A stretch of 63,209 nt of DNA, filler included, from Collodictyon triciliatum (lineage: Eukaryota): the NCBI GenBank assembly GCA_043381765.1. It is 7 parts of 7 records of this genome, joined end to end, with 100 filler letters (N's around TTAATTAATTAA, not from the genome) between each part and the next. Parts side by side here need not be neighbours in the genome. Positions count along the whole stretch, not along the records: positions 18,359 to 27,432 come from JBHJMP010003170.1; 6 more parts are not named here. The stretch is one strand, 5' to 3'. This document shows, piece after piece, positions 14,086-62,867 of the stretch. The notes beneath the pieces were generated by a model, which was not told where the DNA came from, searched no databases, and worked only from the letters and a program-made list of their open reading frames with translations. The translations under genes were made by a program, and so were the position numbers. Each line of letters starts with the position of its first letter. Positions within the stretch are counted from its first letter, which is position 1.

Positions 14086-15834
14086 ACAAAAAACATAAAA
14101 CAAATAATAATAGTACCATAGGTAAAGAAATGCGCATTCGAAGGGTGATAGTGTGTGTGATGAAACTGGCGAAGGGCGTCGTAGGTGAGGCTGGTAATGT
14201 GTGGCGGATCGCCTCCAGAGACATGGTGGTACGTTGTGGTGGGGTAAAGGGCAGTTTGTAGGCGAGTAGAGAACAGTGACGCAGAATCAGCCTATTGCAG
14301 ACATAAGCTTTGAAATTACGAAATCATTCCCTATAATGGCTTTAATGATAATCGTAACAAACATAGCAAACATGATAATCAAGTTAAACTAGAAAATTCA
14401 ATAAACAGACCAATACACCCTTCATTTCATTCAGCACAACACCTTTGAAAGAAAGCTCGCTGCTGGTATCTGAGAACCAGTGTTAAGGTTATTGATAACA
14501 CAGTGATGGATAGTTTGCTTAGAAACGAAGATTTCATAGGAAACGAATTATATGCTATTTTACTAAAAAAAAATAAAAATAAAATAAGGTACATGTCATA
14601 TCTTATCATGAAATGATAATTATTTAAGAAGCATGCTGACCGTTGTCCTTGTACTCAAGTCGGTATCCTTCTTGTCGAAAGTCCAGCTCGTTAATCAGAG
14701 GATAAAAAACAGCGTCTGTGTAGATTGACATCAGATTGTAAAAGTCCACCTTGTTCTGGGTGGAAAAAGGATATGCAGTGAAGTCCGACCCTGCAATATT
14801 TAAGATTATGATGCAGAGCGAGTGGATAGATGCATGAGGTGAGTATATTCGCGCCGATTTTTTTGGGGGTTTCTTGAAAGAAGAAAATCGGGTTTAAGAT
14901 ATTGACAGCGTATTTGAGGTGCAAATGACATGAGGCGGTGATGGTCTCATAAGTGTTCAATCATTCATAGCAACCTGTCCATGCGTTCATGTACGTCTTC
15001 AGTGAACGTTTAAGCATATTGAAGAACGGATCTCGCACAGGATACTTGCGAGAGCCACAAAGAACAGTGTGTTCGAGAATGTGTGCCACTCCAGTAGAGT
15101 CAGTGGGATTGGTCGGAAAGGAGACGCTGTGGTTTGAAATATTAGTGTCATAAATACGACGAGCTCAACAGTAAAAAGCAATTAGTAAAAAAGAAAAATG
15201 TGAAAGTAAAAAGTAAAAAAAATAGAATAGAAAGTACAGAGTAAAAAGTAAAAAGTAAAAAGTAAAAAAGTAAAGAAGTAAAGTAAAAAGTAAAAAGTAA
15301 AAAGTAAAAAGTAAAAAGTAAAAAGTAAAAAGTAAAAAGTAAAAAGTAAAAAGTAAAAAGTAAAAAGTAAAAAGTAAAAAGTAAAAAGTAAAAGGTAAAA
15401 GGTAAAAAGTAAATAATAATAACAATAACAATAACAATAATAATCATAATCATAATCATAATCATACGGTCAAAAGATAAATAAAGTGGATGGCAAATAT
15501 AATCATTAGGACCTGAATACGTTGTCGGGATCATTACAGGCGAGATGGATGTACTTCGCGCCGGTCGCTTGATGAACATATGAGTTCGCGACAATATCTA
15601 GCTCCTTGACTGGTGTCACCTTGACGTAAAAATAATTAGAAAAAAGAAAAGTAATATATACAGATAAAAGAAAAATGAGAATGAAAAAGAAATAGGCAAC
15701 GATAAACATAATGATGGACGAGGTACATTCACGAGGCGGAAGTTGTGAAGAGGGGCATTTGAAGCTGCGTTTTCTGAGCCATAGAACCTGCGCCCCAGTA
15801 TGCCCCGCGAGGATAGCGAGAGACGAGCGAGCAT
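9393..15834 (-). CDS. PITRM1: Mitochondrial presequence protease (M16C metallopeptidase, PreP/Cym1); many exons; 3' end missing
   Basis: Presequence-like [20 protein letters not shown], then [35 protein letters not shown] (HXXEH), [24 protein letters not shown] and [13 protein letters not shown]. The last visible exon ([27 protein letters not shown]) ends at a GT donor at 9392; the intron runs into the spacer. Confidence 0.93.
11749..11904. repeat. (AAAAAGC)n followed by poly(A); (CAATA)n at 12578-12686; (AAAAAGT)n at ~15240-15412; (ATC)n at 16071-16138
   Basis: Seen directly, in or near PITRM1 introns. Confidence 0.93.
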
Positions 15835-16070: not shown

Positions 16071-16137
<67 letters not shown>

Positions 16138-16998
16138 CCCTGTGCAACATTCACATGCCGCGCAGCTGCTTTTATGAAGGGTCAATCCCGTGGGAAGAGG
16201 GATTCAGGACGAAACTTGCAAAAACAACTTATATTCCTCATTGTTAAATGTGAGTTAACGTTGGTATGGGGAGTTTGGATATGAAGGAACGAGTATTACA
16301 ACCCTTCGATACGCTTTTTTTTCCTTCTAGCTTGCAGCGAGCCACATAATCATTACTTGAAATAAAGAACCCAAAAACTGGTGACTGAAAGAAGAAAGAA
16401 AAACACTCGGTACAAACGGAACAAAGCATCACATTTCTCTTTAAGGTGACATGATATCCAACAATGATGAATTCGTGTGCAATATTGTAAAAAGACGATG
16501 ATTGTTATTCACCAGTTTCCCGCATAAGTCCTCGATGCATCTGGTCAAAATAGCGCTCGGAATTATAGAAAAAAAAGTAGAGGACTGGGAGAATCAATAG
16601 ATGATTGGCCGGAGAGAAATCGGTTCATTCCCTTTAATCACGGATGAAAAAGTTGCAATCCACATGAAGCGCTTAAAAATAGGTAAATACTTCAGAGTAG
16701 TTTATAATTTATTTCAAATTCTGTCAGCACCAAAAACTCATCGTCATTCTTTGATTGCTTTTCTTTTTTTCTGTTGTACTGATAATCCATTCTGGCGTAT
16801 AGAGATTGTTTCTGATACAAATCAGTCATTACATGGTGATAGAACCATCGCGTCGGTCTGCGCTGTTATCACGTTGGAATCTCTATTGTCCTAAAATCAA
16901 AGCTAAAATGATTACATCGAGCGAAATGCGCCCTTTTTACCATTCATGACAATTATGTTTGCACGAAAATATTACTTACATTCATTTATTACGACATC

Positions 16999-18069
16999 TC
17001 AGTCATATAGCTGCAGGCTTCTGAGGGTGTCTGAAATACGAGAGCCATTCGAAAACTCGTTATTTCTCCAGCAAGGGAGTGCAGAAACTCCTCGTGGGAT
17101 TCTTTCTATGCTGATATTTTTCTCATAATCCTGAATGTGTAGTTGCTTGAGCTTTCTCATCATAGTGATGTGTGGAGGCAGCTCTATAATCTTTCCCATT
17201 TTCATCATTAGGTCTTGCAGTCATATATTATCCGCATTAATATATGGGGATTATCCAAAACATAATGAAAATGGAAAAGAAAAGAAGATGAGAATTCAGG
17301 GAAAGAAATTAATAATAAAAAAAAATCTCACTGGGTTACTAGTGACATCAAAGTGTTTCAGTTTTCTCATCCCAGATATTGTGGGAGGCAAGCTCGCTAT
17401 TTTATTTTCTGACAGATTCAGATGAGTAACGCGCGACAAAGAACATAGACATACTGGAAAGGCGTTGATTTGGTTACTGCAAAGAGATATGAACTTCAAG
17501 GTTGTCAACACCGACATCTCGTCGGGTAAAAAAGAGAGATGGTTGCAGGACAGGTTCATGTATGTGATAGTGGTCAATCCCGATGCCTTGGTCGAGAGGG
17601 TGGCAATCATGTTATTTGATGCATCTAAGTACTTGAGGCTAGGCAAGCCTAAGACTCCAGTTTGCAACATCGAGAGTTTGTTATTCGACACAGAAAAGCC
17701 CGTCAGTCTGCACAAACGGGACATCTCGTCGGGGAGCTCAGAGAGATTATTGAAAAAAAGGCCTAGCCACTCGAGTCCGTCCAACGCTAAAACCTCGTTT
17801 GGAAACAAAGAGAACTTGTTGTCGAATAGGTTCAAGAGAGTGAGACTAGTCAGAATAGAAATCTCAGTCGGCAACGAGTCCAGTTCGCCCGAACCAGCCG
17901 AAAGACTCATGAGCCTAGTCAACACAAGGACACTGCGCGGGATGAAGGAAAGGTTTTTGTTTGATATGTCAAGCTCTGTGCAGTTTTCCAGAGCACTGAA
18001 AAACCAGTCGGGCTTGTAAGTCGGCTGCAACTCACTTAACTCTGCAAAACTTGTGGCGCGGTCGGACAT
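16999..18069 (-). CDS. Leucine-rich repeat protein, family member LRR-1
   Basis: Exon 1 holds about nine 23-aa LRRs (LxxLxxLxLxxNxLxxLP) ending FDVTSNP|gt. Exon 2 is IIELPPHITMMRKLKQL...IERIPRGVSALPCW...LQLYD*. Degenerate family-like sequence (YTPEW) lies near 16790, so the 3' end is uncertain. Confidence 0.85.
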
Positions 18070-18174
18070 AGTCTTCCTCTGTCTCTGCAAAGAGTGGAGG
18101 AAAGAGAATATGGAACAGTCTGTTAACCTTCGACGAGTTCGCAAGACAGTTTTTGCTTTCTGGTTTTTGCCATT

Positions 18175-18239
<65 letters not shown>

Positions 18240-18736
18240 TTTTTTTTTTTTTTTTTTTNNNNNNNNNNNNNNNNNNNNNNNNNNNNNNNNNNNNNNNNNN
18301 NNTTAATTAATTAANNNNNNNNNNNNNNNNNNNNNNNNNNNNNNNNNNNNNNNNNNNNCCTCTTCTTTTAATCTTTCATATTTAAGTTTTTTTTATTTTT
18401 TGAACCATGCAGAAATATAGTTTCCAATCGTTAAAAATTGTAGAAAAAATGTCGTGAGAGGTACGATATTGCCAAGAAGCTCTACGAAAGAGCGAAGGCC
18501 CCGTTTCCGTTCCATGGTTGAAATTTGATTTATCTTTATCTCTTTTTGTGATATTTTTATTTGATACTATTTTAATATATCAACTTAACTAAATTTAAAT
18601 ATTGAAGCAGGTCTTGGTCTGGAAGAAAAAGGCTCTGTTGTGCTCATGCGTACTTGCATTCTTCTTGATAGGGTGATTAATAATAAATGAAATAATCATT
18701 AAAAAGGTATAAAATATATTCCGTTTGTGAAATATA

Positions 18737-21700
18737 ATGTCCTTTTCAAACCAGATGAAGCTTGCTCGTGAAGACCTGAAGGAGAGGCAATACAAGAAGT
18801 GGAATCCAGCTCCACAAAGATACGTGACACCAACACCGTTGCCACTCATTGTCTTTGACGAGCGTGTCATCCGTCTTTTCCTTTCCTCGACTTTCCGTGA
18901 CATGCAGCAAGAAAGAGACGAGTTCTTCAAGAACGGAGCCCCTGAGTAAGTTCAATCCATTTTTATAAATAAATTTCTGATGAGGAATGATAATTTGATG
19001 CTTTTATTTTACTAGAAGTGATATCTTTATGTCAGGTTGAAAAGGCTTGCGAAATCAAAGGGACTGGACCTTGTCTTTATCGACTTGCGCTGGGGACTGA
19101 CTTCTGTGGACAGTAGCGAGGGATGGGTAATCACACAATATTATTAACATTATTTTTGGAATTTTTTTAGAATATTAAGCATTTTATAAAATAATAAACT
19201 TCAATTTGCTCTTGTTGCTTTCAAAGGTTGTAATTCGCTGTCTGGACTCTATTGGAAAATGCCCATACTTTGTGTGCTCTCTCGGTGCGCGCTACGGTTG
19301 GATTCCTGACCAGAACAAAACGGAGCTGAACAAACAAGCCCTCCTTGAGGAGCTGCTGAAAACCAAGCCTGATGCCACCATGAAGGATGTCTCGGTGGAA
19401 TGGCGCAGTGAAACGAATAGTCGCTTCCCATTCATTGACGGAATGCCTGGGTTGAGTGTGACTGAGTACGAGGTGAAGCCAATCTTTACGTTATATTCTT
19501 TATCTTTTTATGAGTGATAATTGAAAAATAAATAAATTATTCTCTAAAATATATATATTCATGTTCAGATTCAGTACGCCTGTCTGATTGACAAACCAGC
19601 ATGCAGCCGCGCCTTCTTTTACCTCCGTGATGAGCATTATGCTGTCCAACATGCCAAGAATGAGGAAGAATGGTATCTCTTCCAAGCCGAAAGCAAAGAG
19701 GCGGTAAAAATTGATTTTAAGTATGATATTTTCGTTTTCAAGTTATTATGTTATGATTATTTAATGATTCGATTTTTTGACATATATTTCAATTTTATTT
19801 TTTTAGCGTAAGAGGCAGGAGGAGCTCAAAGGGAAAGTCAAGGCCAAGTTCGGGCATGTTGTTTACAAAGGAGCGAAGGAGTATTCGGACTTTGTGACCT
19901 ACCATCTCTCCTACGCCATTGAGCGCGACTTTGGGAATCAAAATGTATTTTTAATTTTTCTGGATTTATGGATATCAGTATTTATTGGTGAGGTATATAT
20001 TTCATTTATATTATGCTGACATAACCATAACCTAGGTGAGAGACCCTGAAGACCAAGCGCAGCATCAGTTCAAGATGCATCGACTGGCTGGGTTTGGTGG
20101 AAGAAAGGAGCTTCTCAAGGCAATCACGGAGCACGTAAGATGAAGATAAAGAGCAACTAATTAAAATGTCAACAATGTCCTTTGATTTTTTTCTTTTCTC
20201 ATCAATAAATCATTTCTATCAGGCCATGAATCAGCTGAACACCGATAAATCCAAAATCATCATTCTCGCTGCCGAGTCTGGGATTGGAAAGTCGTCGCTG
20301 ATGGCTGCTACAGCGAGATACCTCGAAGGGCTGAAGCATCCTGGGCTGCATGTCTTTTTCCATTTTGTCGGATGCACCAATCTCAGCAATTACGTGGAAA
20401 GGTTATTTCTATTCCTTTTTGTTTTTATAGATATAATAACATTGTTTTGGTTTTTTTAACATTTGTTTATTTTAGTGTTTCGATTCGTTTCTGGACTTTG
20501 GTCGCAAACTCTGCCAACTTTGCCGACCGAAAGAAGCAAGAAGCTGGTATTACAGTATTACATTGTATTTTTTTATCTTTTTAATTCAAATTTTGCATAA
20601 TTATTCATGTATTTTATCTTATTTTGCCACCAGAATACGAAAAAGAGGGACTCCAAGGGTTGCTGAAGATGATTCAGGAGAAAAACAAGTAATACTTCAA
20701 TTTTTTTGTTTATTTTAATGATTGTATCAGAATTGAAATACTTTGAATCGAATAAAAAATTGATATTAAATTATGTATATTTATAGGGACGAGAAGTTTG
20801 TCTTCCTCATCGATGCCATCAACCAAATCCACCCGTCGCAAGGAACGCCAGCTCCGCATCTGCTGACCTGGTTGCCAAAGGAAACACCAGCTAATGTTGC
20901 CATGGTTGTTTCGACCATTCATACCCATGAATCTTGCACGGTATTCAATATTTATTTATATTATGGGATATTCTTGTATTCTGCATAAAAATGATTTGAG
21001 TGGAACTTTACTTAATGTATCTGTCATAAGTCTGCCAAGCAAAGTGGACTGGAGCCAATTCCTGTCACAAAGTTAAACGAGGGCGAAATTAAGAATGGTG
21101 TTGAATCCTTCCTCATTCGCTATGACAAGACCCTGAACGAAAAGCAAATTGGAATGATTCTGGCTGACTTAAAAGATACCGGTGAGACATTGATTATAGG
21201 ATTATATATTTGATTAATGTTTTTTTAAGGAATGGTTAATTTATTCTTATCTGAATTTTTTTTATTCTAGGCCACCCGCTCTATCTCCGCATAATTCTTG
21301 ATGAGGTCAGGGTCTTTGGTGTCTATGAGAAGCTCGATGATGAACTGAATACGCTGCTTTCGACCAAAGGTGTCATTGAGCTTTACACTCTCATTATTCA
21401 GCGCTGGCAACTGAAGTTCGACAGGAAAGGTGAGTATTGGTTTCATATTTCACAAAAAAAAGTAAAGAATTATAATTGCCACTTTTGTTGATTACTTATC
21501 TTAACTGTACAGTCTCCTCCTCTGATGGAAAAGAGACAATAAAGGTCGAGTATGTCTCCCTCTCGATGAAGGTTCTCTTTGTTTCCCGCATTGGCCTGAG
21601 TGAAGTTGACCTGGACAAGTACATGAAAGATGCGATTGGCACAGGATTCGAGCTTGCTGAGTGGTTTGCTTACTCCTAAATTTTAATAGAATTAATAGGT

Positions 21701-24700
21701 TTACCTTTTTTCTTTTATTCTTTTATTTATCTAATCTTTTTGTTCATTCAAATAGGAAGTCCTTCTTCTTTACCCTCATCGAGTCGCTTTTCGTCCGCAA
21801 TGGAAGGTTAGTCTTATTTTTAAATCCTTTCGTTCGTTAATCGGTGCTTTTTGGGTATAATTTTATTTTGGTATAAAAACTAATATTGTTTATCATAGAT
21901 ACATGTACTTCCACCAGCTGCTGTTGGAGACCTCCGAAAAGGTCTACTTCTCCGAAGAGGAAGAGATGGAAAAAACGCACGAAAAATACGGAAAATGGCT
22001 GTTTGGCCAGTATTATGAGGCCGCTGACGCGGATGAGGAGCTTGCTGCTGAGATATGCTACCAGCTTCTGAAGGGCAGTTCGTTTGACTTGCTTGTTGAA
22101 TACATGAAGCAAAAACATGTAATTTTTTATTATATGATATGTTCAATTATTTTAGGTATAATAAAAAGATTTTCACTGTAAATTTTTAATATTTCATAGG
22201 TTATCAGTATCATGCTCGGTGGTCGCTATCGCTACGAGTTCTTTACATGCTGGAGAGCAATCAACGCAAGCGGAGCGGCAAACTACAAAGATGTTTATGG
22301 AAGCTTGGCTAAGGTTATTTTACTATTTATCTTTATTTTTTGAAGGTTACTACTTACACAATTTTAATATCAATCATGATTTATCTATTAATTATTTTTC
22401 AGTCTTTGGATAATGTGGGAGACCTGCTGGTTGGATTTTTCTTGGAGTCTTTTGAGAACTCGTTTTTGTTGTCTGTTCTGAATGTGCGTCTTGGAAAGCA
22501 TCAGACAGAAGGTATACAATTTAATATTATTTGATGATTAATGTATGTCATGAAGACGAATTTATATGTGGATACGTTCAATAATCTATCAATTTATAGA
22601 TGCAAAGTCTGCTGATTACCTGAATCTTGGTCGTGTCTACAAGAACCTTCAAAAGTATAAAAAATTATAAAAAAATCAATGATTATAAATAGGACATGAC
22701 ATGATGTTTATAATGCAAACTTTTCTAAAATAAAAATAAATTATACAGCTGGGCTGAGTCCATGGTCTACTACAAGAGATGCCTCGATTCAGTTGAGAAA
22801 AACGAAGATGATTCCCTGCGTATCGCCACCATTCACGAAGAAATGGGAATCATCTACCAGCAACAGGATAAGTAAGGCTCGCTTTCAACTGTAATATATT
22901 ATGAATAATGTTTCAAAAAGGAAGCATTCTAATTTGCTTATGAAACAGAATTGATGAAGCTCTTGATGAATACAAGAAATCACTGGACTTGAGAGTCAAA
23001 CAGCTGGGCGAGAACGACTTGCAAGTGGCCCTATCACATGACCGCTTCGGAGACATCCATGTGAAGCAGTCAAAGTAATGTTTGAATCACTTATATTCGC
23101 TAATATTCTGCTTTTATTTTTTCGTAAATATGTAAGTATGCTTTTAATTTTTTATGATAGGAATGAGCAAGCTCTAGCTGAATACAAAAAGGCCATGGAA
23201 ATTCGCCAAAAGAAAGTCGGAAACGAGCATCCTCTGGTCGCAACATCGTACCAGAACTATGGCCATGTCTCTCTGGCTGGGAAAAAGTAGCATATTCATT
23301 CATTTAAGACAGTTCTAAATTTTCTTATGATATTTTGGGATATTTTAATATGATTGAATCATCAAGGTATGAAGAGTCTGTTGAAAACTTCGAAAAGGCA
23401 AAATCAATCCTTGAAAAATCGCTGGGAGCCAAGCATGCATCTGTTGCCTCGACAATCCAGTATATTGCAAACGTTCATCTTGCCAGTGGAAAGTTCGGTT
23501 CTATAGATTTTAGATTATTTTCATAAAACAATAATTTTTCTTAAAATTGAATTTTTTCAAGATGAGTGTGGTTTTATATCTCACATTTGTATACTCTATT
23601 TATGGTTAAAATTTTACATCATATTATAATTCTAACTTATAAATATCAAATAAATATTGTCCTATATAGGAAAACTGAGGCCTTATCCTCATTAAAGCAA
23701 TCGCTGGATATTTTCATGCCTGCCCTGGGTGAAAATCATCCGAATGTTGTGGCCTGCTATGAAATGATTGGAGACATCAGCCATGATTTGAAGAAGTATC
23801 ATTTTATCAATTATGAATTACATTTATAATTGTGCCGAATAATATTTACTATATCTCAGATATAAGAATGCTTTGGAGGCTTATGCAAAGACACTGGATA
23901 TTCGCGTGAGAACATTGGGCGAAAAGCATGCGGATTGTGCTACCTCTCTGGAGAATGTTGGCCGAACAAACTTTGAGCTTAAAAGGTAACTTCTCTATTA
24001 TATTAGAAAATCGAATATTTTGATTAACACTTGTAAAAAAATATACATCGATAAATATTAACTGATATACATGTATCTAGTTCTGCTCAGTGTGTTGATT
24101 GCTTTCAGAAGGCAGCTGCTATCAGAAAGGAGACAAAGACTGCCATATCACTGAAAGACGGTTCACAATGTACAAGAATTGCGCAAATTATGGGAGACAA
24201 CAAAGAGCATGAAGCCGCCATTCAGCTTTACAAAACAGCTGCTTTTAGACATGGCGAAAAGTCATCCTATGAAAATTGGGACTGCTGGGTGGCTTGCGAG
24301 AATGTACACCAATACTGCAAACAGAATAAGCTACATGAAAGTGGCGCGGCATTCTCGGTTGAGATGAGAGACAAATTCGCTGATAAACTCGGATGGATTC
24401 ACCCCAGAACATTAAACTCATGCGAATACTTATCCGTCCATTCAAAAGAAATCGGAATCAAAAAAGAGCCTGTCGAGTTTACAAGAGTCAAGGAATTCAT
24501 CAGCGAAACTCTTGATGATGCAAAACTAGATGGGGAATGGAATCGTGAGCAAATCATTGCATCATTATTCAGAATTGTCTACATGTCAAAGACTGATGAG
24601 AGCAAATCAAAGGTTGCATCTGATGCCATCACAGTTTTGAATTTCATGAATATTTCGTTAGATGCTATGGATTTATCAAACATCAAAATTCCACATGCAG

Positions 24701-27093
24701 ATCTCAGTAACTCAATCCTTGATGGTGCAAACTTAACTAGTGCCAACTTGGATGGTGTGGACTTCACGAATTCGATGCTTGGTGATTGTGTTTTTGATCA
24801 TGCGAATATGAATAATGTGAAATTCGGAATTTCCCATCATAAATTGGAAGGTCATAGAAATGCTGTCATGAGTATTTGCAGTATTCAAGGACCAAATGGT
24901 GAAAACTGGTTGGCTTCTAGAAGTCGTGAAAAAACAATACGAATTTGGGATGTGGCCACAGGAAACCATATCAAAACATTAAAAGGTCACACAAGAGATG
25001 TCACTAGTGTTTGCAGTATTCAAGGACCGAATGGTGAAAATTGGCTGGCCTCTGGAAGTCGTGATAAAACAATACGTATTTGGGATATAGCCTCAGGAAA
25101 CCATATCAAAACACTAGAAGGTCATACAAGTTATGTCATGTGTGTTTGCAGCATTCCAGGACCGAATGGTGAACGCTGGTTAGCTTCTGGAAGTAATGAT
25201 AATACAATACGTATTTGGAATGTAGCCACAGGAAATCAAATCAAAACATTAGAAGGTCATACTGAGAGTGTCACTAGTGTTTGCAGCATTCAAGGTCCGA
25301 ATGGCGAAAAGTGGCTGGCTTCTGGAAGTGTTGATAATACAATACGTATTTGGGATGTAATCACAGGAAATCAAATCAAAACATTAGAAGGTCATACAAG
25401 GTGTGTCACTAGTGTTTGCAGTATTCAAGGACCGAATGGTGAAAAGTGGCTGGCTTCTGGAAGTTATGATAATACAATACGTATTTGGAATGTAGCCACA
25501 GGAAATCAAATCAAAACATTAGAAGGTCATGTAGAACGTGTCACCAGTGTTTGCAGTATTCAAGGACCGAATGGTGAAATATGGTTGGCTTCTGGAAGTA
25601 GCGATTATACAATACGTATTTGGGATGTAGCGACAGGAAATCAAATAAAAACATTAAAAGGTCATGCAGAAGCTGTCAATAGTGTTTGCAGTATTCAAGG
25701 ACCGAATGGTGAAAATTGGCTGGCTTCAGGGAGTGGTGATAATACAATACGTATTTGGGATATATTCACAGGAAACCATATCAAAATATTAGAAGGTCAT
25801 AAACGTTCTGTCACTAGTGTTTGCAGTTTTCAAGGACCGAATGGTGAAAAGTGGTTGGCTTCTGGAAGTCGTGATAAAACAATACGTGTTTGGGATGTAG
25901 TCAAAGGAAATCGTATCAAAATATTAAAAGGACATACAGAAGCTGTCACTAGTGTTTGCAGTATTCAAGGACCGAATGGTGAAAAGTGGCTGGCTTCTGG
26001 AAGTAGTGATTATACAATACGTATTTGGGATGCAGCCACAGCAAACCAAATCAAAACATTAGAAGGTCATACAAAATGGGTCACTAGTGTTTGTAGTATT
26101 CAAGGACCGAATGGTGAAAATTGGCTGGCTTCGGGAAGTGGTGATAAAACAATACGTATTTGGGATGTAGCAACAGGAAACCAAATTAAAATATTAAATG
26201 GTCATACAGATGAAGTAACTAGTGTTTGTAGTATTCAAGGACCGAATGGTGAAATATGGCTGGCTTTTGGAAGTGGTGATAAAACAATACGTATTTGGGA
26301 TGTAGCAACAGTAAGTCAAATCAAAACATTAGAAGGTCACACAAAATGGGTCACTAGTGTTTATACTATTCAAGGACCGAATGGTGAAATATGGCTGGCT
26401 TCTGGAAGTGGTGATAAAACAATACGTATTTGGGATTTGGCCACTGGAAACCAAAGACATGGCCTGCAAAAATCAGAAGTGACCTACACCCAAGGAAAAT
26501 ATCTAGTCAAGAAAGAAAAGCCAGACGAAGTCATCGCAGTATTCAACAGAACAAGTGATGCGATGGACATGATTGATACCAACAGAATCCAAGATGCAAA
26601 GACAGTCCAGATTATCGGCCTAAGAAAGCTGCAAGGTGGAAACATCCAAATCAGAAACGTCACGGGATTGAGTCGATTCAACAAATCTCTCCTTCTTTCA
26701 ATCGGAGCTGCTTCCTTTGATGCGGACTTTGCTGTCTATGGTGAACAGAGTAAGTTGACCAACTTCCAGGCTCAAATGATGGCTGAGTGCTATGAGAATG
26801 GATGGGGTGTTGGAAAGGACACCGAGAAAGCAGCTGAGTGGAGAATTATCGCTCCCATGATATCATCATTAGACTTTGATGGATTGAAACATCTTGCACA
26901 ACAAGGCTCAAAGGGTGCATTCAATTTTTTGAAAGAAATGGCTGAAATTAAGGAAGACATTCTGACCCGATTGGGAGACAAAATTGGTGAAAAACACAAA
27001 CATCCACAAGCTGTTTCTATTGTGGCTGAGTGCTATGAGAATGGGTGGGGTGTTGAGAAGGACACCGAGGAGGCTGCTGAGTGGAGACAGTAA
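18737..27093 (+). CDS. NLR-like STAND NTPase: DUF4062 - NACHT - TPR array - pentapeptide repeats - 12 WD40 repeats - 2 Sel1-like motifs
   Basis: DUF4062 motifs RLFLSSTFRDMQQERDEF, IDLRWG, LGARYGWIP, SVTEYE. Walker A AESGIGKSS (~20271), Walker B FVFLIDAINQI (~20800), HPLYLRII. 42-aa TPRs (LGENHPNVVACY type). The terminal exon 24081-27093 is in frame with the preceding phase-2 intron. Confidence 0.88.
24841..26451 (+). repeat. Tandem array of twelve 135-nt (45-aa) highly similar WD40 repeats
   Basis: Unit ~ QIKTLEGHxxxVTSVCSIQGPNGExWLASGSxDxTIRIWDVATGN. caaggaccgaatggtgaa-type anchors recur every 135 nt (e.g. 25021, 25156). Confidence 0.97.
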
Positions 27094-27824
27094 GACTCAG
27101 CTTAACAAGGTAAGTAGTGTTATGAATGAATATTAATATATGTTCGTTAACTCTATTAATCATTTTAGATGGAGAGATTCTCTGAGTTTTTTTCAAGCAG
27201 ACCTCCACTTTTTTCCCACAAGGACGCTCCATGAAAATAGAATAAGCCATAAAAAAATGAAAGCATAGCTGACCGACTCGTTGAATTCTTCTTTCCTTTT
27301 TCTTTTTTCTTTTTTCTTTTTTCTTTTTTCTTTTTTCTTTTTTCTTTTTTCTTTTCTTTTTTCTTTTTTCTTTTTTCTTTTTTCTTTTTTCTTTTTTCTT
27401 TTTTCTTTTTTCTTTTTTCTTTTTTCTTTTTTNNNNNNNNNNNNNNNNNNNNNNNNNNNNNNNNNNNNNNNNNNNNTTAATTAATTAANNNNNNNNNNNN
27501 NNNNNNNNNNNNNNNNNNNNNNNNNNNNNNNNGTGTCTGTGTCTGTGTCTGTGTCTGTGTCTGTGTCTGTGTCTGTGTCTGTGTCTGTGTCTGTGTCTGT
27601 GTCTGTGTCTTTCTCTTCCCATCTCCATTTTTCTTCTTCTTCTTTTTAATATCCCTTCTCTACGCAACTTCTACTGCAAAAAAAAAAAAAAACAATCTTT
27701 TTTATCTTTCTCTCCGATCCATTTCTATTAATCCATAATTGGTTTGTGCAGCTTGTTGGGTATGTCTCTTACTAAACTTATCTTCCGCCTTCCGCCTTCC
27801 CCGTCCCCTTCCTCTCTTGTATAG

Positions 27825-28606: not shown

Positions 28607-31326
28607 TTATTGTCTCATCTTTTTGTCATGCACCCCAAGTAACCTTTTTCTAATCAGACGCTTCATTTCATTCTTGAATTGAAGCAAGCGATTTTGATCT
28701 GGAGGCAGACTTTTGCGAGATGCATGTGATACCGCTTCATTCCATTCTGACAATAGCTCATCGTCACTCAGGGATAGCAAGGTGGTCTCTTTTCGACGTT
28801 CTGAGTACTCAGCAAAGGAACGATACGGATAATGGTAGATGTCCAGGACACCCGCGGTTTGGACCACTTCAGTGGGAGGAATACCATGTGGCTGTGATAT
28901 CAAATGCGCTTGATACTGTGACTTGCGGCGCAGGTCTGGTGGTGGGAAATTCATGACAGCCACCAACAACGGATTTGATAGGCCATCCTCTTGGAGTCCC
29001 ACCACAAAAAGGGGACGGAATACAGACCTGGCTTGTGATGGGATGAAAGAGGGAAGTGTCTTGGGTTGTGTGACATTCTGGCACCTCTCAAACGATAAAC
29101 CAATTCTTTGCAAGGCTTGGTCAACATTCTTGCTCTCAAGCCCTTTTTCAGAATCGGATAGTGCGTCTGGTTTTCCCTTTGAATCCTGAATGATGGCTTT
29201 TGCCTCTGCTGTTGCATCAACTAGGGACTGTAAATCACGGTCGCTAATATCCTGTTTGGAAGAGGGCCCAAAAGAAATACGTGGAACCATGAGGACTGGA
29301 ATCAAGTCGGAAACTTCATTCTTGTTCAAATGATCTTTTGCGTCGGCAAAATTGTCCTGCATATCGAGATTTGGTGCAGCATTAGGATTGCCTTCTCCTT
29401 GACGAGGCTTTTTGAGAAGTGTTTTACTATGGGCGAATCTGATTTGTAGTGCCCTCTTGACCGTATCAAAAGGCTTCCTTGGGACTATGAACTCGTCTAC
29501 TTGAAGATACGTCATCCATTGTGTAAGCGGACCGAACTTTCGCATAGCATCCGTCAGGGCTAATGCAGCAGCATGAGGGTAATGTTTGCTCCACCTGACC
29601 CTGGTCAATCCAGAAGGAAACTCCTTAAAAAGGGTGTCTAAAATGTGATCAGATGACGGAGCTGCGTCGTAGATAATGATGCGGTCGTATCCTTGGAGCA
29701 GATGATATTCTAACCATTCCCTCAGATGGAATATTAAGCGAGAGCGTGCACGAAGGCCTTTGGGTGATAAAGGGGCAATATACGTGACAAGAGTCATAAT
29801 AACAGGCTCGATGGACGGAACTTCCAATGTCCTCAACTGGGTCGGGGTAGTAAAGAACTTCAAGTCGTAAGAGAGTCTCAGGCGTAAATCTACATGAGAG
29901 TGTGATGACGGACGAACAGACTTGGGAACTTTACAGTAAGTGAAAGTAGGCCCTCCTGAGCGCGCCAGAGCAGCATCGATGGTCCCATCGGGATGCTCCC
30001 AGAAACAATACATCGAATCACATGACGAGGAAAGCGAAGAGTTTCGAAGGGGTAGGTAGGGCGCTATGACAAAGACCTCTGACGAGGGTTCCAGCTTGTT
30101 GGAGTCGGTCGCATATAGTGCTTGAATCTCAAATGGTCGCTTGGAATTGACTGAAAGATGAATTTGGGTGGCCATGTCTTCATGGTCATGAATAAAGAGC
30201 TGCACAGTCCATTGGATTCGATCGAGGGGTATGGTAGAATGGGGAGTGGGAGGCATACAAGCAGGGATTCCTACAGGGGGGCACACGGCGTGTTCAATGT
30301 CCTTACAAAATACATTAGATTTGTGCTTCTCGCCAGTGTTAGAACGATAGATGCACACAGCATTTGAATTGCATTTCATATCTTTGGGCAACTTGAATTC
30401 TGTTGAGCCCCATTCCGAGCATAAGCGTACACAGGTTTGGGACATATCTTCCAAGTATCCTTGGTGATGATTTTGCATGTCTGCATCGACCGTGCTTGAA
30501 TTCTGTACTTCCTGGTCCTCGAGATCGATGCGGTTGAACATAAATCGGCGCACACGAACCTCAAAAGGCAGGTGAAATGATGGGTTCCATCCACGATTGA
30601 CAACACCTCCTTCTTGGACTCCTGATAAAGGCAAAACAGAGTCGCCTGTGGGAGGGGGTAATCTACATGGCTGGCCCTGCGCGTTCTTGGGTGTTGTATC
30701 ATCAGCCCTTGTGTTCCTTCCCGCTTGGCCAAAGTTGAAGGTACTTCGGAGTACATAGATGAGATTCAGGCAGAGGATGACAACAAGACTTACACGGAGC
30801 AGATGACCAACCTTTAGGTATTTGTGAAAGGAAAATAAAATTAATATGTACAAATACAAACAAAGGAAATATAATATGTGTAAAAAAATAAAAAAAGTAA
30901 AAGAAAAAGTAAAAGAAATAGAAAAAGAAATAGAAAAAGAAATAGAAAAAGAAATAGAAAAAGAAATAGAAAAAGAAATAGAAAAAGAAATAGAAAAAGA
31001 AATAGAAAAAGAAATAGAAAAAGAAATAGAAAAAGAAAAAGAAATAGAAAAAGATAAAGAAAAAGATAAAGAAAATGGAGAAAAAGAAAATGGAGAAAAA
31101 GAAATAGAAAAAGAAATAGAAAAAGAAATAGAAAAAGAAATAGAAAAAGAAATAGAAAAAGAAATAGAAAAAGAAATAGAAAAAGAAATAGAAAAAGAAA
31201 TAGAAAAAGAAATATAAAAAGAAAAATATAAAAAGAGATATAAAAAGAAATAGAAAAACCTAGGTTTAGGGTGGAATGTGAAGAAAATAATGAGCTTCGA
31301 GGCTGATCTTTGCAGCCAGCCCCTCG

Positions 31327-43519: not shown

Positions 43520-45296
43520 TTAACCGTCGTCAACATAATATACATCCCTCTGAATCTCGCACTTCCTCGTGTCCAGTTGTTTCAAGTTGACTTTTACAGT
43601 CATCCTCACTTCCAGCACCCTCCGTCACCCCATAAAATGCTGGTAGCTGAATAATCTACAACATGAAATACAAATGACTTGGAGTAAAATGTGGATGTGG
43701 AACGCAAAAGGAATTGATGAATCAAGTGTAGTTGAGAAATGATGCAAACAATCTATCCAATCGATCGATTTTATTCGGCCCGTCAATAGCTATCTCACCT
43801 GGTTATTTGTCACATCTAGCTGTTGGAGATAGCAAAGTCGGTTGATTGAATCGGGTATATTTGTGAGCTGGGGCATATGAAGAAGGGCGTTCAGCGATTT
43901 TCGTAAATAATATATACTGTCTTGTGTATATTAATAAGTCTCATCCTCCATGTAAAGTATGCTACCTTGTTATTTGCGATGTCCAACCTAACAATCGAAG
44001 AAATATGACAAATTGACTCTGGCAGCTCTACAAACTATCACGTATCGAATCTGTTAGTGATTTTGCCCAACTGAATGATTCTGCATTTAACTCATTCATT
44101 ACGTGGTTTCTTCTGAGACATAAATACGTCAGGTTTTGCAAAAGGGAGATGCTCTCTGGGAGTTTTTTTAAGTTCATGCCGTACAGACTTAGCGTAATAA
44201 ATCTTATATGCAACTCAGTTGGTGTCCATTCTGGCGTTGTTATCAATTCAATCTGTTTTTATTCTTTTGATGAGTTGCTTCCTTTTCTTTAAAAAAAAAT
44301 ATATGCTAGATTACAGTTACCAACCGTATCACACAACTCGACAGCGCGTATTATTATCTTCTTATTCAGCCCTTTCTTCCAGCAGGGGAGATTCGAGATT
44401 CCGCGAGGTACTCTTTTGATAGTTTTATCCAAATAGCCTTCTATTAAGAGCTCCTGCAAACTCTTCAGCGTTGTGATTTGTGATGGAAGCTCTTCCATCT
44501 ACATGAAATTCATTAGTCTCATACTGTTTTAACATGCCTGATGAAAGAGAAAACTCACCGGATTATTGCCCACGTTGAGATGTGTGAGACAAGTTAAGCG
44601 TGATATTTCCGGAGGCAGATATGTCAGCAAATTTTTGTAAATACTAAGGTATTTTAGACAAACCAAACAGGATATCACTGAAGGAATTGAGGTCAAATTA
44701 TTGGAGCCAACATCCATCGATACAAGAGCCTTCAAGGTTGATATCTCTGTGGGAATGGAGGACAGCTTGTTGTCATACATATGAAGATATGCAAGGCTTT
44801 CTAATTTTGATATGTCTGGTGAAAGCGCTGATAATTGATTGAAACTGATATCAAGATAGGTGACTGCCTTCATGTATGACGTTTCTGGCGGGAGATATGT
44901 GAGCTTATTATCGAAAATACTTAGATACTTGAGCCTAACCAACCCGGGTATCTTTGGTAGGATTGAGGATAGACAGTTTGAACTAACGTCCAAATAAGTG
45001 AGACTTGTCAAGCATGATAACTCCAGCGGAAGGGATGTTATTCGGTTAATACTTACATCAAAATATATGAGACTTGTCAAGCATGATACCTCTGGTGGTA
45101 GGGATGATAGCTGGTTTTCCGAAAGATCCAACTCGACCAAACGATGGAGCAGGAAGATCCCCCGTGGAACAGAAACCACACGGCTTGACTGGAGCCTAAG
45201 CTTTGTGCAGTTTTCGAGTCTTCCAAACAGCCCACCAGGCGAATACTCTGCTTTGAGCGTTTTCAGCTCTCCGAGAAGCGCAAGTCCACCACTCAT
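43520..45296 (-). CDS. Leucine-rich repeat protein LRR-2, paralog of LRR-1
   Basis: The N-terminus LGELKTLKAEYSPGGLFGRLENCTKL aligns with LRR-1 FAELSELQPTYKPDWFFSALENCTEL. About ten LRRs end VGNNP|gt, followed by IKRVPRGISNLPCW, further LRR exons and an acidic tail. Confidence 0.85.
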
Positions 45297-59351: not shown

Positions 59352-62471
<3,120 letters not shown>

Positions 62472-62867
62472 CGGCTCGGGCAAATGGCGACTGGGCTGCG
62501 GCTGTGGAGATTCCAGTCAGGTACCTCGGGTCTTTTGTCGAGTTTCATTTTGAGTGTGTGTTTTGTGTGTGTCCTTTTTTTTATGTCTTTTTTGTGTCTT
62601 TTTTTATGTCTTTTTTTTATGTCTTTTTTTTATGTCTTTTTTATGTGATCTGATCGTCTGAAGTCTTCGCGGAAGGAAATGCGGAATAGGTCTCAAAAAA
62701 CCGTATGTGACAAAATTTGAAAAATGAATAATGTTTATATTATAATGCTGATGCAGTACTAATGCAAATATAATGATAATTTATTGTAATATGAGTCTAA
62801 AAGGTCGTTATAATATAATATCCACATATGTATGTTTAAGCCAAAATTGGAATGGAAAAGCTGTCCG

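Follow-up and report, generated by a model that had tools for sequence, protein, structure and literature searches.

Receptors of the NLR-like type that carry highly similar repeats are regarded as recognition devices that evolve fast, and the best documented examples are fungal and bacterial. A gene of Collodictyon triciliatum whose last exon encodes twelve similar WD40 units raises the question of whether a poorly studied freshwater eukaryote carries such a receptor. The window analysed here is the whole stretch of 63,209 nt (filler included) taken from assembly GCA_043381765.1, and the gene lies in the part that derives from record JBHJMP010003170.1. The reading we favour, with a probability of about 55%, is that of a ligand-sensing NLR-like STAND array, amplified from one blade, partly homogenised by exchange between units and under probable diversifying selection at its surface.

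Twelve in-frame WD40 units

Tandem Repeats Finder, applied to the window, reported a period of 135 nt with 12.0 copies at 24836–26455 (85% matches, 0% indels). Twelve GH motifs are spaced by exactly 135 nt in a single open frame, which continues without indels across the array's 1,620 nt, and Pfam WD40 matched the array in 12 stretches (E = 5.9e-116). Twelve units of 135 nt, as described in an earlier note on this DNA, were thus recovered, and the register 24832 + 135(i − 1), ending at 26451, was used throughout:

24832..26451, + strand: WD40 array, 12 units of 135 nt (45 aa), from Tandem Repeats Finder, GH spacing and Pfam WD40

The residue triplets listed earlier for the positions after GH and in S-x-D-x match the translation letter for letter (24/24), and the 45-aa unit does have the longer loop ascribed to it, the extra three residues sitting in the QGPNGE a-b loop. 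This length is not special to the array, because every relative found has a 45-aa blade.

Gene architecture

The gene has at least 25 exons, and the array is carried by the last of them, which has no introns. The protein comprises, in this order, DUF4062/NIR (TIR-like NADase), NACHT, TPR, pentapeptide, 12 WD40 blades and Sel1. Its closest relatives are four proteins in the transcriptome of Diphylleia rotans (a full HMMER scan gave 8 family proteins at E up to 0.001), and one of them, P0143, is 52% identical to the window protein over 1823 aa. The parts of the gene are as follows:

18468..18672, + strand: further 5' coding exons, probable (~18468–18524, ~18611–18672), from weak collinear tblastn matches
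18755..19703, + strand: DUF4062/NIR (TIR-like NADase) domain in four exons, from Pfam, P0143 and contig joints
20036..21181, + strand: NACHT-type NTPase exons, from Pfam on the P-loop exon, motifs and P0143
22600..23985, + strand: TPR_12-type repeats, from the gene model, Pfam and contig joints
22949–23074, 23161–23286, 23367–23492, 23670–23795, 23860–23985, + strand: 126-nt TPR exons, from the gene model
24081..27093, + strand: intronless last exon, 3,013 nt, from the open frame 24055–27093 and Pfam; stop codon at 27091–27093
24640..24825, + strand: pentapeptide repeats directly 5' of the first blade, from Pfam PF00805
26776..27090, + strand: two Sel1-like repeats (~26776–26841, ~27020–27090), from Pfam Sel1

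Contigs from sequencing runs X1, X2, X3 and X5, none of them listed as RNA, were aligned to the gene; 11 sequencing runs contained matching words, each amounting to at most 0.11 of sampled words. Among the joints listed for X1 and X5, 13 of 15 coincide with 13 of the 24 predicted introns, and two (21656>21774 and 21841>21981) are not of the GT..AG type and fall outside the gene model.

The model is 5'-incomplete and runs toward a gap at 18260–18358. The probable upstream exons correspond by tblastn to residues 303–321 and 319–340 of P0143, in collinear and individually weak matches, and the loose end of an X5 contig before 18753 resembles 18640–18670. The DUF4062/NIR exons contain SSTFRDMQQERD and the motif SVTEYE, which lines up with the stretch around the catalytic Glu in human TEP1. 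Pfam DUF4062 scored 18.1 bits on exon 1 and 24.1 bits on exon 3 (each alone below the 24.7 cut-off), and three of the four introns of this region were seen as contig joints. The same model scored 43.8 bits on P0143, in which NACHT (26.8 bits against a cut-off of 26.7), nSTAND1 and NPHP3_N were also detected; the DUF4062 domain of P0143 matched PDB entry 11gz_A (TEP1; E = 4.6e-15), and SVTEYEI paired with SVTEMEV in the alignment. Assuming that the 11gz_A chain starts near residue 896, we infer that the conserved Glu of SVTEYE corresponds to E1008 of TEP1, given in the accessible literature as the catalytic Glu of DUF4062, a reported NADase.

For the NACHT part, translation gave a Walker A motif (AAESGIGKSS) in exon 20223–20401 and a Walker B-like FVFLIDA in 20787–20940, while Pfam matches on the P-loop exon (NPHP3_N, 20.1 bits; AAA_16, 18.4 bits) were both below cut-off. 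The last five TPR repeats occupy one 126-nt exon each, in the same phase; TPR_12 scored 20–30 bits on five exons, and the joints 22654>22749, 22871>22949 and 23492>23670 are present in contigs of X1 and X5. A further joint in these two runs, 23985>24094 with 13 replaced letters, fits an acceptor at 24080. The last exon then encodes a helical linker, the pentapeptide repeats (41.4 bits against a cut-off of 20.2, residues 187–248 of the exon translation), the WD40 array, a poorly predicted spacer and the two Sel1 repeats (41.7 bits against 30.7, in two stretches). Related contigs skip from 26844 to sequence resembling 27085 onward. Word-based homologue searches with the linker that precedes the WD40 array returned only pentapeptide proteins in one case and nothing in another.

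Divergence of the units

Pairwise nucleotide identity between units was 74–93% (mean 84%) and pairwise dS 0.07–0.59 (median 0.30), with a synonymous diversity pS of 0.23 when six hypervariable codons were left out, so that the near-identity at synonymous sites claimed in the earlier note was overstated. Amino-acid identity averaged 0.76 (range 0.62–0.91), a simple pairwise count rather than the pipeline of Hu 2017 or Pereira and Lupas 2022, which is below the 85% cut-off for 'high internal conservation' of WD40 repeats (Dyrka 2014) and, going by the accessible text of the other two papers, above the cut-offs of 0.7 for 'highly repetitive' WD40 (Hu 2017) and of 60% median blade identity for amplified propellers (Pereira and Lupas 2022). 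Mean blade identity in the relatives was much lower (0.45 in P0143, 0.40 in P0144 and 0.42 in P0051), and the blades of the array are young relative to theirs. For all 12 units the nearest unit was another one of the same array; in a FastTree of 42 units the array's 12 did not form one group, the largest pure group comprising 4 units (support 0.77).

Invariant residues occupy 17 of the 45 unit positions. Five to eight residue types were found at positions 9, 10, 11 and 32, and four at positions 1, 25, 41 and 42, with variation maxima at 9–11 and 32, which lie in top-face loops, and at 25. With strands and loops assigned by DSSP of the AlphaFold2 model, the d-a loop had a pN of 0.34 and the b-c turn one of 0.29, compared with 0.00 in the a-b loop and 0.03–0.09 in strands a–c. 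The most variable residues are those of the d-a loop after GH and the x before Asp of the b-c turn; they correspond to HET-E codons 7 and 25, which are among the positively selected sites of that protein (Paoletti 2007). WD40 blades commonly contact their partners at such sites, and most differences between the units fall there, as they do in fungal and bacterial examples. The concentration of variation proposed for the residues after GH and in S-x-D-x was therefore confirmed at 9–11 and 32, and an equal hotspot had been missed at position 25. This residue, the x of NGE-x-W, opens strand b next to the a-b loop. It is probably off the propeller's top face ('top face' being assigned from WD40 topology rather than from measured positions), and because of it the clustering of variable residues on one face is only partial.

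A diversity-generating retroelement and RIP-like hypermutation were both rejected as sources of the variation, since the units depart from their consensus at 163 places, with changes from all four bases (83 transitions and 80 transversions); kappa for the array units was ~2. A search for a second copy of the array within the window found none.

Predicted structure of the array

AlphaFold2 model 1 of the array (mean pLDDT 86.6) has four strands per unit, and its units 1–7 align structurally with 7-bladed WD40 propellers over 285 of 286 residues (Z 42.4, rmsd 1.7). The predicted blade split differs between models, with 7+5 (units 1–7 closed) in one and 4+8 (units 5–12 in an 8-blade ring) in the other, and no cryptic blades were predicted 3' of unit 12 in model 2, where pLDDT was ~25. 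Foldseek on the array model placed 2ymu first (E = 7.8e-41) and Apaf-1 at ranks 2–3.

Selection, exchange and drift

By NG86, dN/dS was 1.94 at the six hypervariable codons versus 0.32 elsewhere. The sites under selection in HET-E map to unit positions 11, 13, 32 and 34, and under the best-fitting codon model, MG94xF3x4 (lnL −783.0), omega was 1.83 at these four (p = 0.011; parametric bootstrap under the same model, p = 0.007) and 2.13 at positions 9, 10, 11, 32 and 34 (p = 0.0003; 0/300 in the bootstrap). GY94xF3x4 (lnL −792.2) gave an omega of only 1.14–1.33 for the same site sets (p = 0.16–0.55), with 1.14 and p = 0.55 at the HET-E-mapped sites. Omega was ~2 at the loop sites in three of four codon models, the best-fitting one included; the nonsynonymous excess over neutrality is model-dependent. 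Site-wise MG94 tests gave p < 0.05 only at 10, 11 and 25, and none of the 45 positions reached the Bonferroni level of 0.0011 (45 tests; smallest p = 0.0014). Among the HET-E-mapped sites taken singly, 11 was significant and 32 was not (p = 0.11), while 13 and 34 had no nonsynonymous excess in the codon-model tests on 12 units. These tests were run on 12 short sequences with a single fixed tree, and their results can be inflated by recombination; diversifying selection on the array is plausible but not proven.

Signs of exchange between units were looked for in the same alignment, in which the longest exact repeat joins the unit 3/4 junction with the unit 5/6 junction:

25196..25260, + strand: 65-nt stretch identical to 25466–25530, the longest exact repeat in the array

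This tract comprises 28 identical polymorphic sites in a row (permutation p = 0.003, register shifted by 68 nt) and looks like a conversion or duplication with breakpoints inside units. The tract test in unit register gave p = 0.19, and PHI gave p = 0.04, 0.11 and 0.50 at three window sizes, so that the evidence for exchange, as read from the alignment, is thin.

These results have to be weighed against a simpler history, in which twelve copies of one blade arose fairly recently and neutral changes then accumulated where the fold tolerates them, with neither diversifying selection nor ongoing homogenisation. Propellers are documented to be amplified continually from single blades (Pereira and Lupas 2022; Hu 2017, both in their accessible text), the tree of the array units is star-like (internal branches make up 15% of its length), the median dS of 0.30 implies that the copies are not very young, and omega under GY94xF3x4 is not significantly above 1. 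Variability per position also agrees between the array and its relatives (Spearman 0.69), as relaxed constraint alone would predict. However, of the eight positions with an entropy of at least 3.0 bits in the relatives (3, 6, 10, 11, 19, 25, 32 and 45), only 10, 11, 25 and 32 diverged in the array (1.9–2.9 bits), whereas 3, 6, 19 and 45, equally free in the relatives, barely changed (0.4–1.2 bits). Neutral change also sits poorly with the invariant a-b loop next to variable top loops, with the significant tract common to non-adjacent units and with the loop-site omega under most codon models. Amplification followed by drift is on balance a possible but somewhat unlikely account.

Under the favoured reading, the array would be the part of an NLR-like STAND protein that senses its ligand, with blades that may have arisen by tandem amplification of one 45-aa blade in a family that already had this length. 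The blades would have been kept similar partly by exchange between units and would have diverged mainly at the top-face loop residues (9–11, 32) and at position 25, probably under diversifying selection that alters the surface used for binding. Apaf-1, HET-E and NIR-NACHT proteins suggest by analogy that a bound ligand would free the NACHT module, which would then oligomerise and switch on the predicted N-terminal NADase.

A probable diversified gene family

Contig pieces aligned to the gene numbered 530 in X1 and 432 in X5, hundreds of them only 90–99% like it, which points to a diversified multigene family. A scan of metagenome contigs with the array gave 19 pattern matches, 0 of which were confirmed by tblastn.

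Such a family would be difficult to reconcile with a propeller that serves as a scaffold for one conserved cellular partner, each blade contacting another part of it and the blade differences now being conserved between individuals, a role that has been suggested for housekeeping WD40 proteins and perhaps for NWD1 or TEP1. Top-face differences between blades are normal in WD40 proteins (Hu 2017, accessible text), and the accessible literature describes NWD1, NWD2 and NPHP3 without a demonstrated immune role or NADase activity. Against this, the relatives differ from one another in blade number (7, 8 and 15 units were extracted) and in sequence (blades 40–45% identical), and we regard a fixed partner as improbable.

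A wider proposal is that the gene belongs to a large family of NAD-degrading NLR-like receptors in a non-fungal protist lineage, in which HNWD-like blade amplification and exchange would act within and between loci, selection would act on contact residues, and the exon-per-repeat TPR cassette would perhaps be shuffled too. We consider this speculative and rather doubtful; if true, it would represent an independent origin, outside fungi and bacteria, of a repeat-shuffling immune or allorecognition repertoire coupled to a NADase. The protist host and the tie to the recently characterised DUF4062/NIR NADase domain make the gene a natural test of repeat amplification plus surface diversification as a general route to receptor repertoires, and it couples what may be a variable sensor to an effector that is simple to assay. 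Its structure is clear, an intron-rich N-terminal part being followed by an intronless repeat exon.

Soundness of the assembly

Misassembly of the array is unlikely. That unit number or order arose from collapsed or mis-joined repeats in a gapped draft is very improbable: the window does contain several N gaps with linker sequence, and short-read assembly is known to get such arrays wrong (Ament-Velasquez 2025, accessible text), but the frame is open and indel-free, there are no 71-mer repeats and no exact repeat longer than 65 nt, unique 31-mers cover 85% of array positions, and an independent DNA contig of the freshwater-metagenome run X2 matches 25074–25256 (183 nt) without difference, spanning two unit junctions.

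Comparison with known systems

The HNWD proteins of Podospora anserina (HET-E, HET-D, HET-R) likewise have a NACHT NTPase followed by many similar WD40 repeats, with variation in the d-a loop after GH and near the Asp of the b-c turn, and similar repeat numbers (12 here, 11 conserved plus 3 cryptic in reactive HET-E alleles). Their unit is 42 aa long rather than 45 aa, and their amino-acid identity between repeats is ~85% (Dyrka 2014) or >80% to 100% (Ament-Velasquez 2025, accessible text), compared with 76% here. An N-terminal HET domain is replaced by DUF4062/NIR in the window gene (Pfam scans of its N-terminal exons and of P0143 found DUF4062 and no HET domain), and only the window gene has TPR and pentapeptide repeats between NACHT and WD40 and Sel1 repeats after them. 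In the array, only two of the four sites selected in HET-E are conspicuous, and position 25 is an extra hotspot. HNWD genes are fungal, whereas the window gene is non-fungal and has the only copy of the array in the window; having no HET domain, a 45-aa unit and a host that is not a fungus, it is not an HNWD member. The mechanism of HET-D/E/R, which the earlier note had supposed to operate here, is thus matched in the position C-terminal to NACHT, in the hotspots and in one conversion-like tract, but not in membership or in selection at sites 13 and 34, and elsewhere selection depends on the model. We regard the array as a highly repetitive sensor made of WD40 blades within an NLR-like protein, analogous to the fungal HNWD proteins, and on present evidence the gene adds to a pattern already known instead of establishing a new one.

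Human NWD1, NWD2, TEP1, TTC41 and NPHP3, as described in the accessible literature, share with the window gene an N-terminal DUF4062 that carries the conserved Glu motif, NACHT next to it, and C-terminal repeats of the TPR and/or WD40 type; the accessible reports on human DUF4062-NACHT members give NADase activity for TEP1 only. The window gene differs from them in combining TPR and WD40 and in its highly repetitive blades, and its pentapeptide and Sel1 modules are not mentioned for NIR/DUF4062-NACHT proteins in the accessible literature.

Recently amplified blades on a STAND ATPase also characterise the Nostoc punctiforme WRAP protein Npun_R6612 (PDB 2ymu) and the highly repetitive 'HR WD40' class, for which variability at predicted interaction hotspots within conserved repeats is known (Hu 2017, accessible text). 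That protein has 14 near-identical blades (7+7), compared with 12 blades at 76% identity in a eukaryotic gene with introns. In Apaf-1, also a STAND NTPase, the activating ligand is bound by a double WD40 propeller at the C-terminus, but, unlike the window gene, Apaf-1 carries CARD as its effector and NB-ARC in place of NACHT, and its blades (7+8) are old and dissimilar.

Extent and assembly of the WD40 array

Tandem Repeats Finder recovered a single array at 24836-26455 (period 135, 12.0 copies, 85% matches, indels 0), lying within an open frame that runs from stop to stop at 24055-27093. The 12 GH dipeptides of the array are spaced by exactly 135 nt, and units were cut at 24832+135(i-1). Seventeen of the 45 unit positions are invariant, while positions 9, 10, 11 and 32 carry 5-8 residue types each and positions 1, 25, 41 and 42 four each. 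The residue triplets given in the earlier note, both those after GH and those at S-x-D-x, proved exact in 12/12 units, but its description of the units as ‘nearly identical even at synonymous sites’ was too strong: nucleotide identity between units was 74-93% (mean 84%), pairwise dS ranged from 0.07 to 0.59 (median 0.30), and synonymous diversity (pS) outside six hypervariable codons was 0.23. Amino-acid identity averaged 0.76, with unit 1 the most divergent.

Although the array lies in a gapped draft window, it is probably not an assembly artefact, with contig support covering part of it. The longest exact repeat inside the array is 65 nt, there are no repeated 71-mers, and unique 31-mers cover 85% of positions. 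A contig from sequencing run X2 (freshwater-metagenome DNA) corresponds to 25074-25256 with zero differences and crosses the unit 2/3 and 3/4 junctions; another, from run X3, matches 26594-26846 exactly. A linker of sequence TTAATTAATTAA sits inside the assembly gaps (18260-18358, 27434-27513 and other N runs), which are flanked by long microsatellites: poly-T at 18180-18259, (TTCTTTT)n at 27286-27432, (GTGTCT)n at 27533-27610, (GTAAAA)n at about 15240-15400 and (CAT)n at 16078-16138.

Gene model and domain architecture

The window is eukaryotic; its introns are AT-rich, measure 64-177 nt and follow the GT-AG rule. A model of 25 exons (18755-27093, 2,044 aa) was built from GT/AG sites by dynamic programming, with three borders set by hand. 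Thirteen of the 15 joints listed for contigs from runs X1 and X5 agreed with it (13/24 model introns) and two disagreed; these contigs are only 90-99% like the window, so some may derive from paralogues or close relatives. Upstream, the N-terminal extension of a relative is collinear with two more probable exons, at about 18468-18524 and 18611-18672; the model is 5'-incomplete and the gene continues towards the gap. An SVTEYE motif is present in the window translation.

Pfam domains of the gene model
DUF4062: exons 1 and 3, 18.1 and 24.1 bits, each alone below cut-off
NPHP3_N: P-loop exon, 20.1 bits, below cut-off
TPR_12: five single exons
Pentapeptide: last exon, 41.4 bits
WD40, 12 repeats: last exon
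Sel1: last exon, 41.7 bits

All 24 introns lie within the initial 5.3 kb of the gene (18755-24080); the last exon, at 3,013 nt (24081-27093), is free of introns. The last-exon linker (LFRIVYMSK...AITVLNF), together with the pentapeptide and WD40 parts, resembles the junction of Reticulomyxa NACHT-pentapeptide-WD40 proteins (LFRII...AITILN), and the exon also has a weak YfjL_C match (E = 0.024). The gene may have gained its sensor module by fusion, as one block.

Five consecutive TPR repeats (22949-23985) occupy one 126-nt exon each in identical phase, so that skipping or duplicating any of them would keep the reading frame intact. They recall the exon-per-TPR NB-ARC genes of Ectocarpus (PMC3341825); DNA identity between the exons is only 38-52%, and they are thus not recent copies. 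At the C-terminus, the Sel1 motif AECYENGWGV..AAEWR is present twice (26776-27168 region). Related X1/X5 contigs pass from 26844 straight to sequence like 27085 onward, implying a single motif copy there, and run on as ...GCTTAACAAG/ATGGAGAG, implying a 59-nt 3'-UTR intron at 27110-27168.

Relatives of the gene

A search with the last exon returned 5,506 proteins with E<=0.001 among 8,000 scored candidates. Identity was at most 48% in all of the best 120 matches, which include fungal HET-E-like, cyanobacterial, Reticulomyxa and endosymbiont NACHT/WD40 proteins, and in only one of these 120 (P0051) was GH spacing mostly 45. When the family-specific linker (206 aa) was the query of a full HMMER scan, eight proteins reached E<=0.001, four of them from the EukProt transcriptome of Diphylleia rotans (P0143, P0144, P0051 and P0148). 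P0143 is 52% identical to the spliced model protein across 1,823 aa, and its N-terminal part scored 43.8 bits for DUF4062 (cut-off 24.7) and 26.8 bits for NACHT (cut-off 26.7). The same part matched the solved TIR-like domain of human TEP1 (11gz_A, E = 4.6e-15), SVTEYEI facing SVTEMEV. According to the accessible portions of two 2026 preprints, DUF4062, renamed NIR, is a TIR-like NADase with a catalytic Glu (E1008 in TEP1), N-terminal in many eukaryotic NLR-like proteins (NWD1, NWD2, TEP1, TTC41, NPHP3).

Over the gene (18700-27100), X1 and X5 yielded 530 and 432 contig pieces of 90-99% likeness, with summed depth several-fold greater on the WD40 array than on the NACHT and TPR exons. This pattern is compatible with a multigene family whose members have similar blades, which contigs cannot prove.

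Age of the blades and exchange between them

The 45-aa unit with its G-P-N-G-E-x-W loop occurred in all three relatives that yielded units. Mean unit identity in these was 0.45, 0.40 and 0.42 (15, 8 and 7 pattern-extracted units), against 0.76 in the array. The long unit is therefore ancestral to the family and the array a younger amplification. For 12/12 array units the nearest neighbour was another array unit (0.73-0.91; foreign units 0.56-0.67); a FastTree phylogeny of 42 short unit sequences did not recover the array units as one group. At 0.76, the array passes the cut-offs for ‘highly repetitive’ WD40 proteins (above 0.7, Hu 2017) and propellers (above 60%, Pereira and Lupas 2022), and misses the level above 85% that Dyrka 2014 sets for ‘high internal conservation’.

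PHI tests for three window sizes gave p = 0.04, 0.11 and 0.50, weakly significant in one, and 210 of 406 informative-site pairs were incompatible. A GENECONV-like run test found no significant tract in unit register (p = 0.19) and one tract with the register shifted by 68 nt (p = 0.003), in which 25196-25260 and 25466-25530 are identical over 65 nt. This tract points to one or more events, either exchange or duplication of two units, whose breakpoints fall within units.

Highly repetitive WD40 sensors on STAND/NLR-like proteins, with diverse predicted interaction hotspots, have been described in fungi and bacteria. Internal identity is >0.4 in about 2% of protist WD40 proteins, and Hu 2017 counts protists among the hosts of young arrays. 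The general pattern is thus already known, and the gene is noteworthy for its lineage, predicted NADase effector and structure. The family was not found in literature on Diphylleia NACHT, DUF4062, WD40/NLR concerted evolution or WD40 amplification, though supplements may list it.

Location of variation within the blade

An AlphaFold2 model of the array (mean pLDDT 86.6) has four strands per unit.

Strands (unit positions) and nonsynonymous diversity (pN) by blade element
Strand d: positions 1-6, pN 0.19
Strand a: positions 12-19
Strand b: positions 25-31
Strand c: positions 35-40
Strands a-c: pN 0.03-0.09
d-a loop: pN 0.34
b-c turn: pN 0.29
c-d loop: pN 0.20
a-b loop (QGPNGE): pN 0.00

The selected codons of HET-E all lie on the top face: one pair, 7 and 9, flanks a conserved residue in the d-a loop, and the other, 25 and 27, flanks the Asp of the b-c turn (Paoletti 2007). 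They correspond to array positions 11, 13, 32 and 34. Variation at HET-E-type sites, as claimed in the earlier note, held for positions 11 and 32, which are among the most variable; 13 and 34 are not. Its expectation of variable sites on one face held only in part: 11 and 32 map to top-face sites of HET-E, but position 25, starting strand b beside the a-b loop, would lie on the opposite face by standard WD40 topology. The enlarged a-b loop GPNGE (positions 20-24) is invariant in 12/12 units. Strand c (TIRIWD, positions 35-40) has near-zero synonymous variation (pS 0.045 versus 0.23-0.34 in other strands), which hints at DNA-level constraint or frequent conversion.

Selection tests

NG86 dN/dS was 1.94 at the six hypervariable codons, chosen post hoc, compared with 0.32 at the remaining 39. 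Likelihood tests (fixed synonymous rate, own implementation, IQ-TREE codon tree) covered 12 sequences x 45 codons and ignored recombination.

Likelihood tests at two site sets
GY94xF3x4: lnL -792.2; omega 1.14 (p=0.55) at sites 11, 13, 32, 34; 1.33 (p=0.16) at sites 9, 10, 11, 32, 34
MG94xF3x4: lnL -783.0; omega 1.83 (p=0.011) at sites 11, 13, 32, 34; 2.13 (p=0.0003) at sites 9, 10, 11, 32, 34

The outcome at HET-E-type sites varied with the codon-frequency model, so that the expected excess of nonsynonymous change was borne out under MG94xF3x4 and not under GY94xF3x4; omega for both sets was 2.1-2.8 with MG94xF1x4 and with equal frequencies. A parametric bootstrap (MG94) gave p = 0.007 and 0/300. 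Site-wise MG94 tests returned omega >1 at p<0.05 for positions 10, 11 and 25, and purifying selection at 23/45. The relatives provided an independent control: eight positions were equally unconstrained in their units (3, 6, 10, 11, 19, 25, 32 and 45; entropy at least 3.0 bits); in the array 10, 11, 25 and 32 have strongly diverged (1.9-2.9 bits) and 3, 6, 19 and 45 have changed little (0.4-1.2 bits). Together these results lend moderate, not decisive, support to accelerated change at the loop sites.

Predicted closure of the propeller

Two predicted models disagreed on how the 12 blades close (7+5 versus 4+8). In the first, units 1-7 formed a closed 7-bladed propeller with five blades left over (Z 42.4, rmsd 1.7, 285/286 aligned against 7big_A; Z 39.9 against WDR5). 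In the second, longer model (mean pLDDT 71.8, about 25 for residues beyond unit 12), units 5-12 formed a closed 8-bladed ring with four left over (Z 38.4, rmsd 1.9, 320/320 aligned against Tako8). The best Foldseek matches were the repetitive Nostoc propeller 2ymu and Apaf-1. HET-E has been modelled as 7+7, with 11 conserved and 3 cryptic blades.

Neighbouring open frames

17299-18099, minus strand: LRR-only protein
28610-30859, minus strand: glycosyltransferase family 92 domain
44532-45296, minus strand: LRR-only protein
59355-60554, minus strand: NHL-repeat propeller
61689-62516, minus strand: RING finger

The NHL-repeat and RING finger frames share a strand and are separated by 1.1 kb, in a TRIM-NHL-like arrangement.
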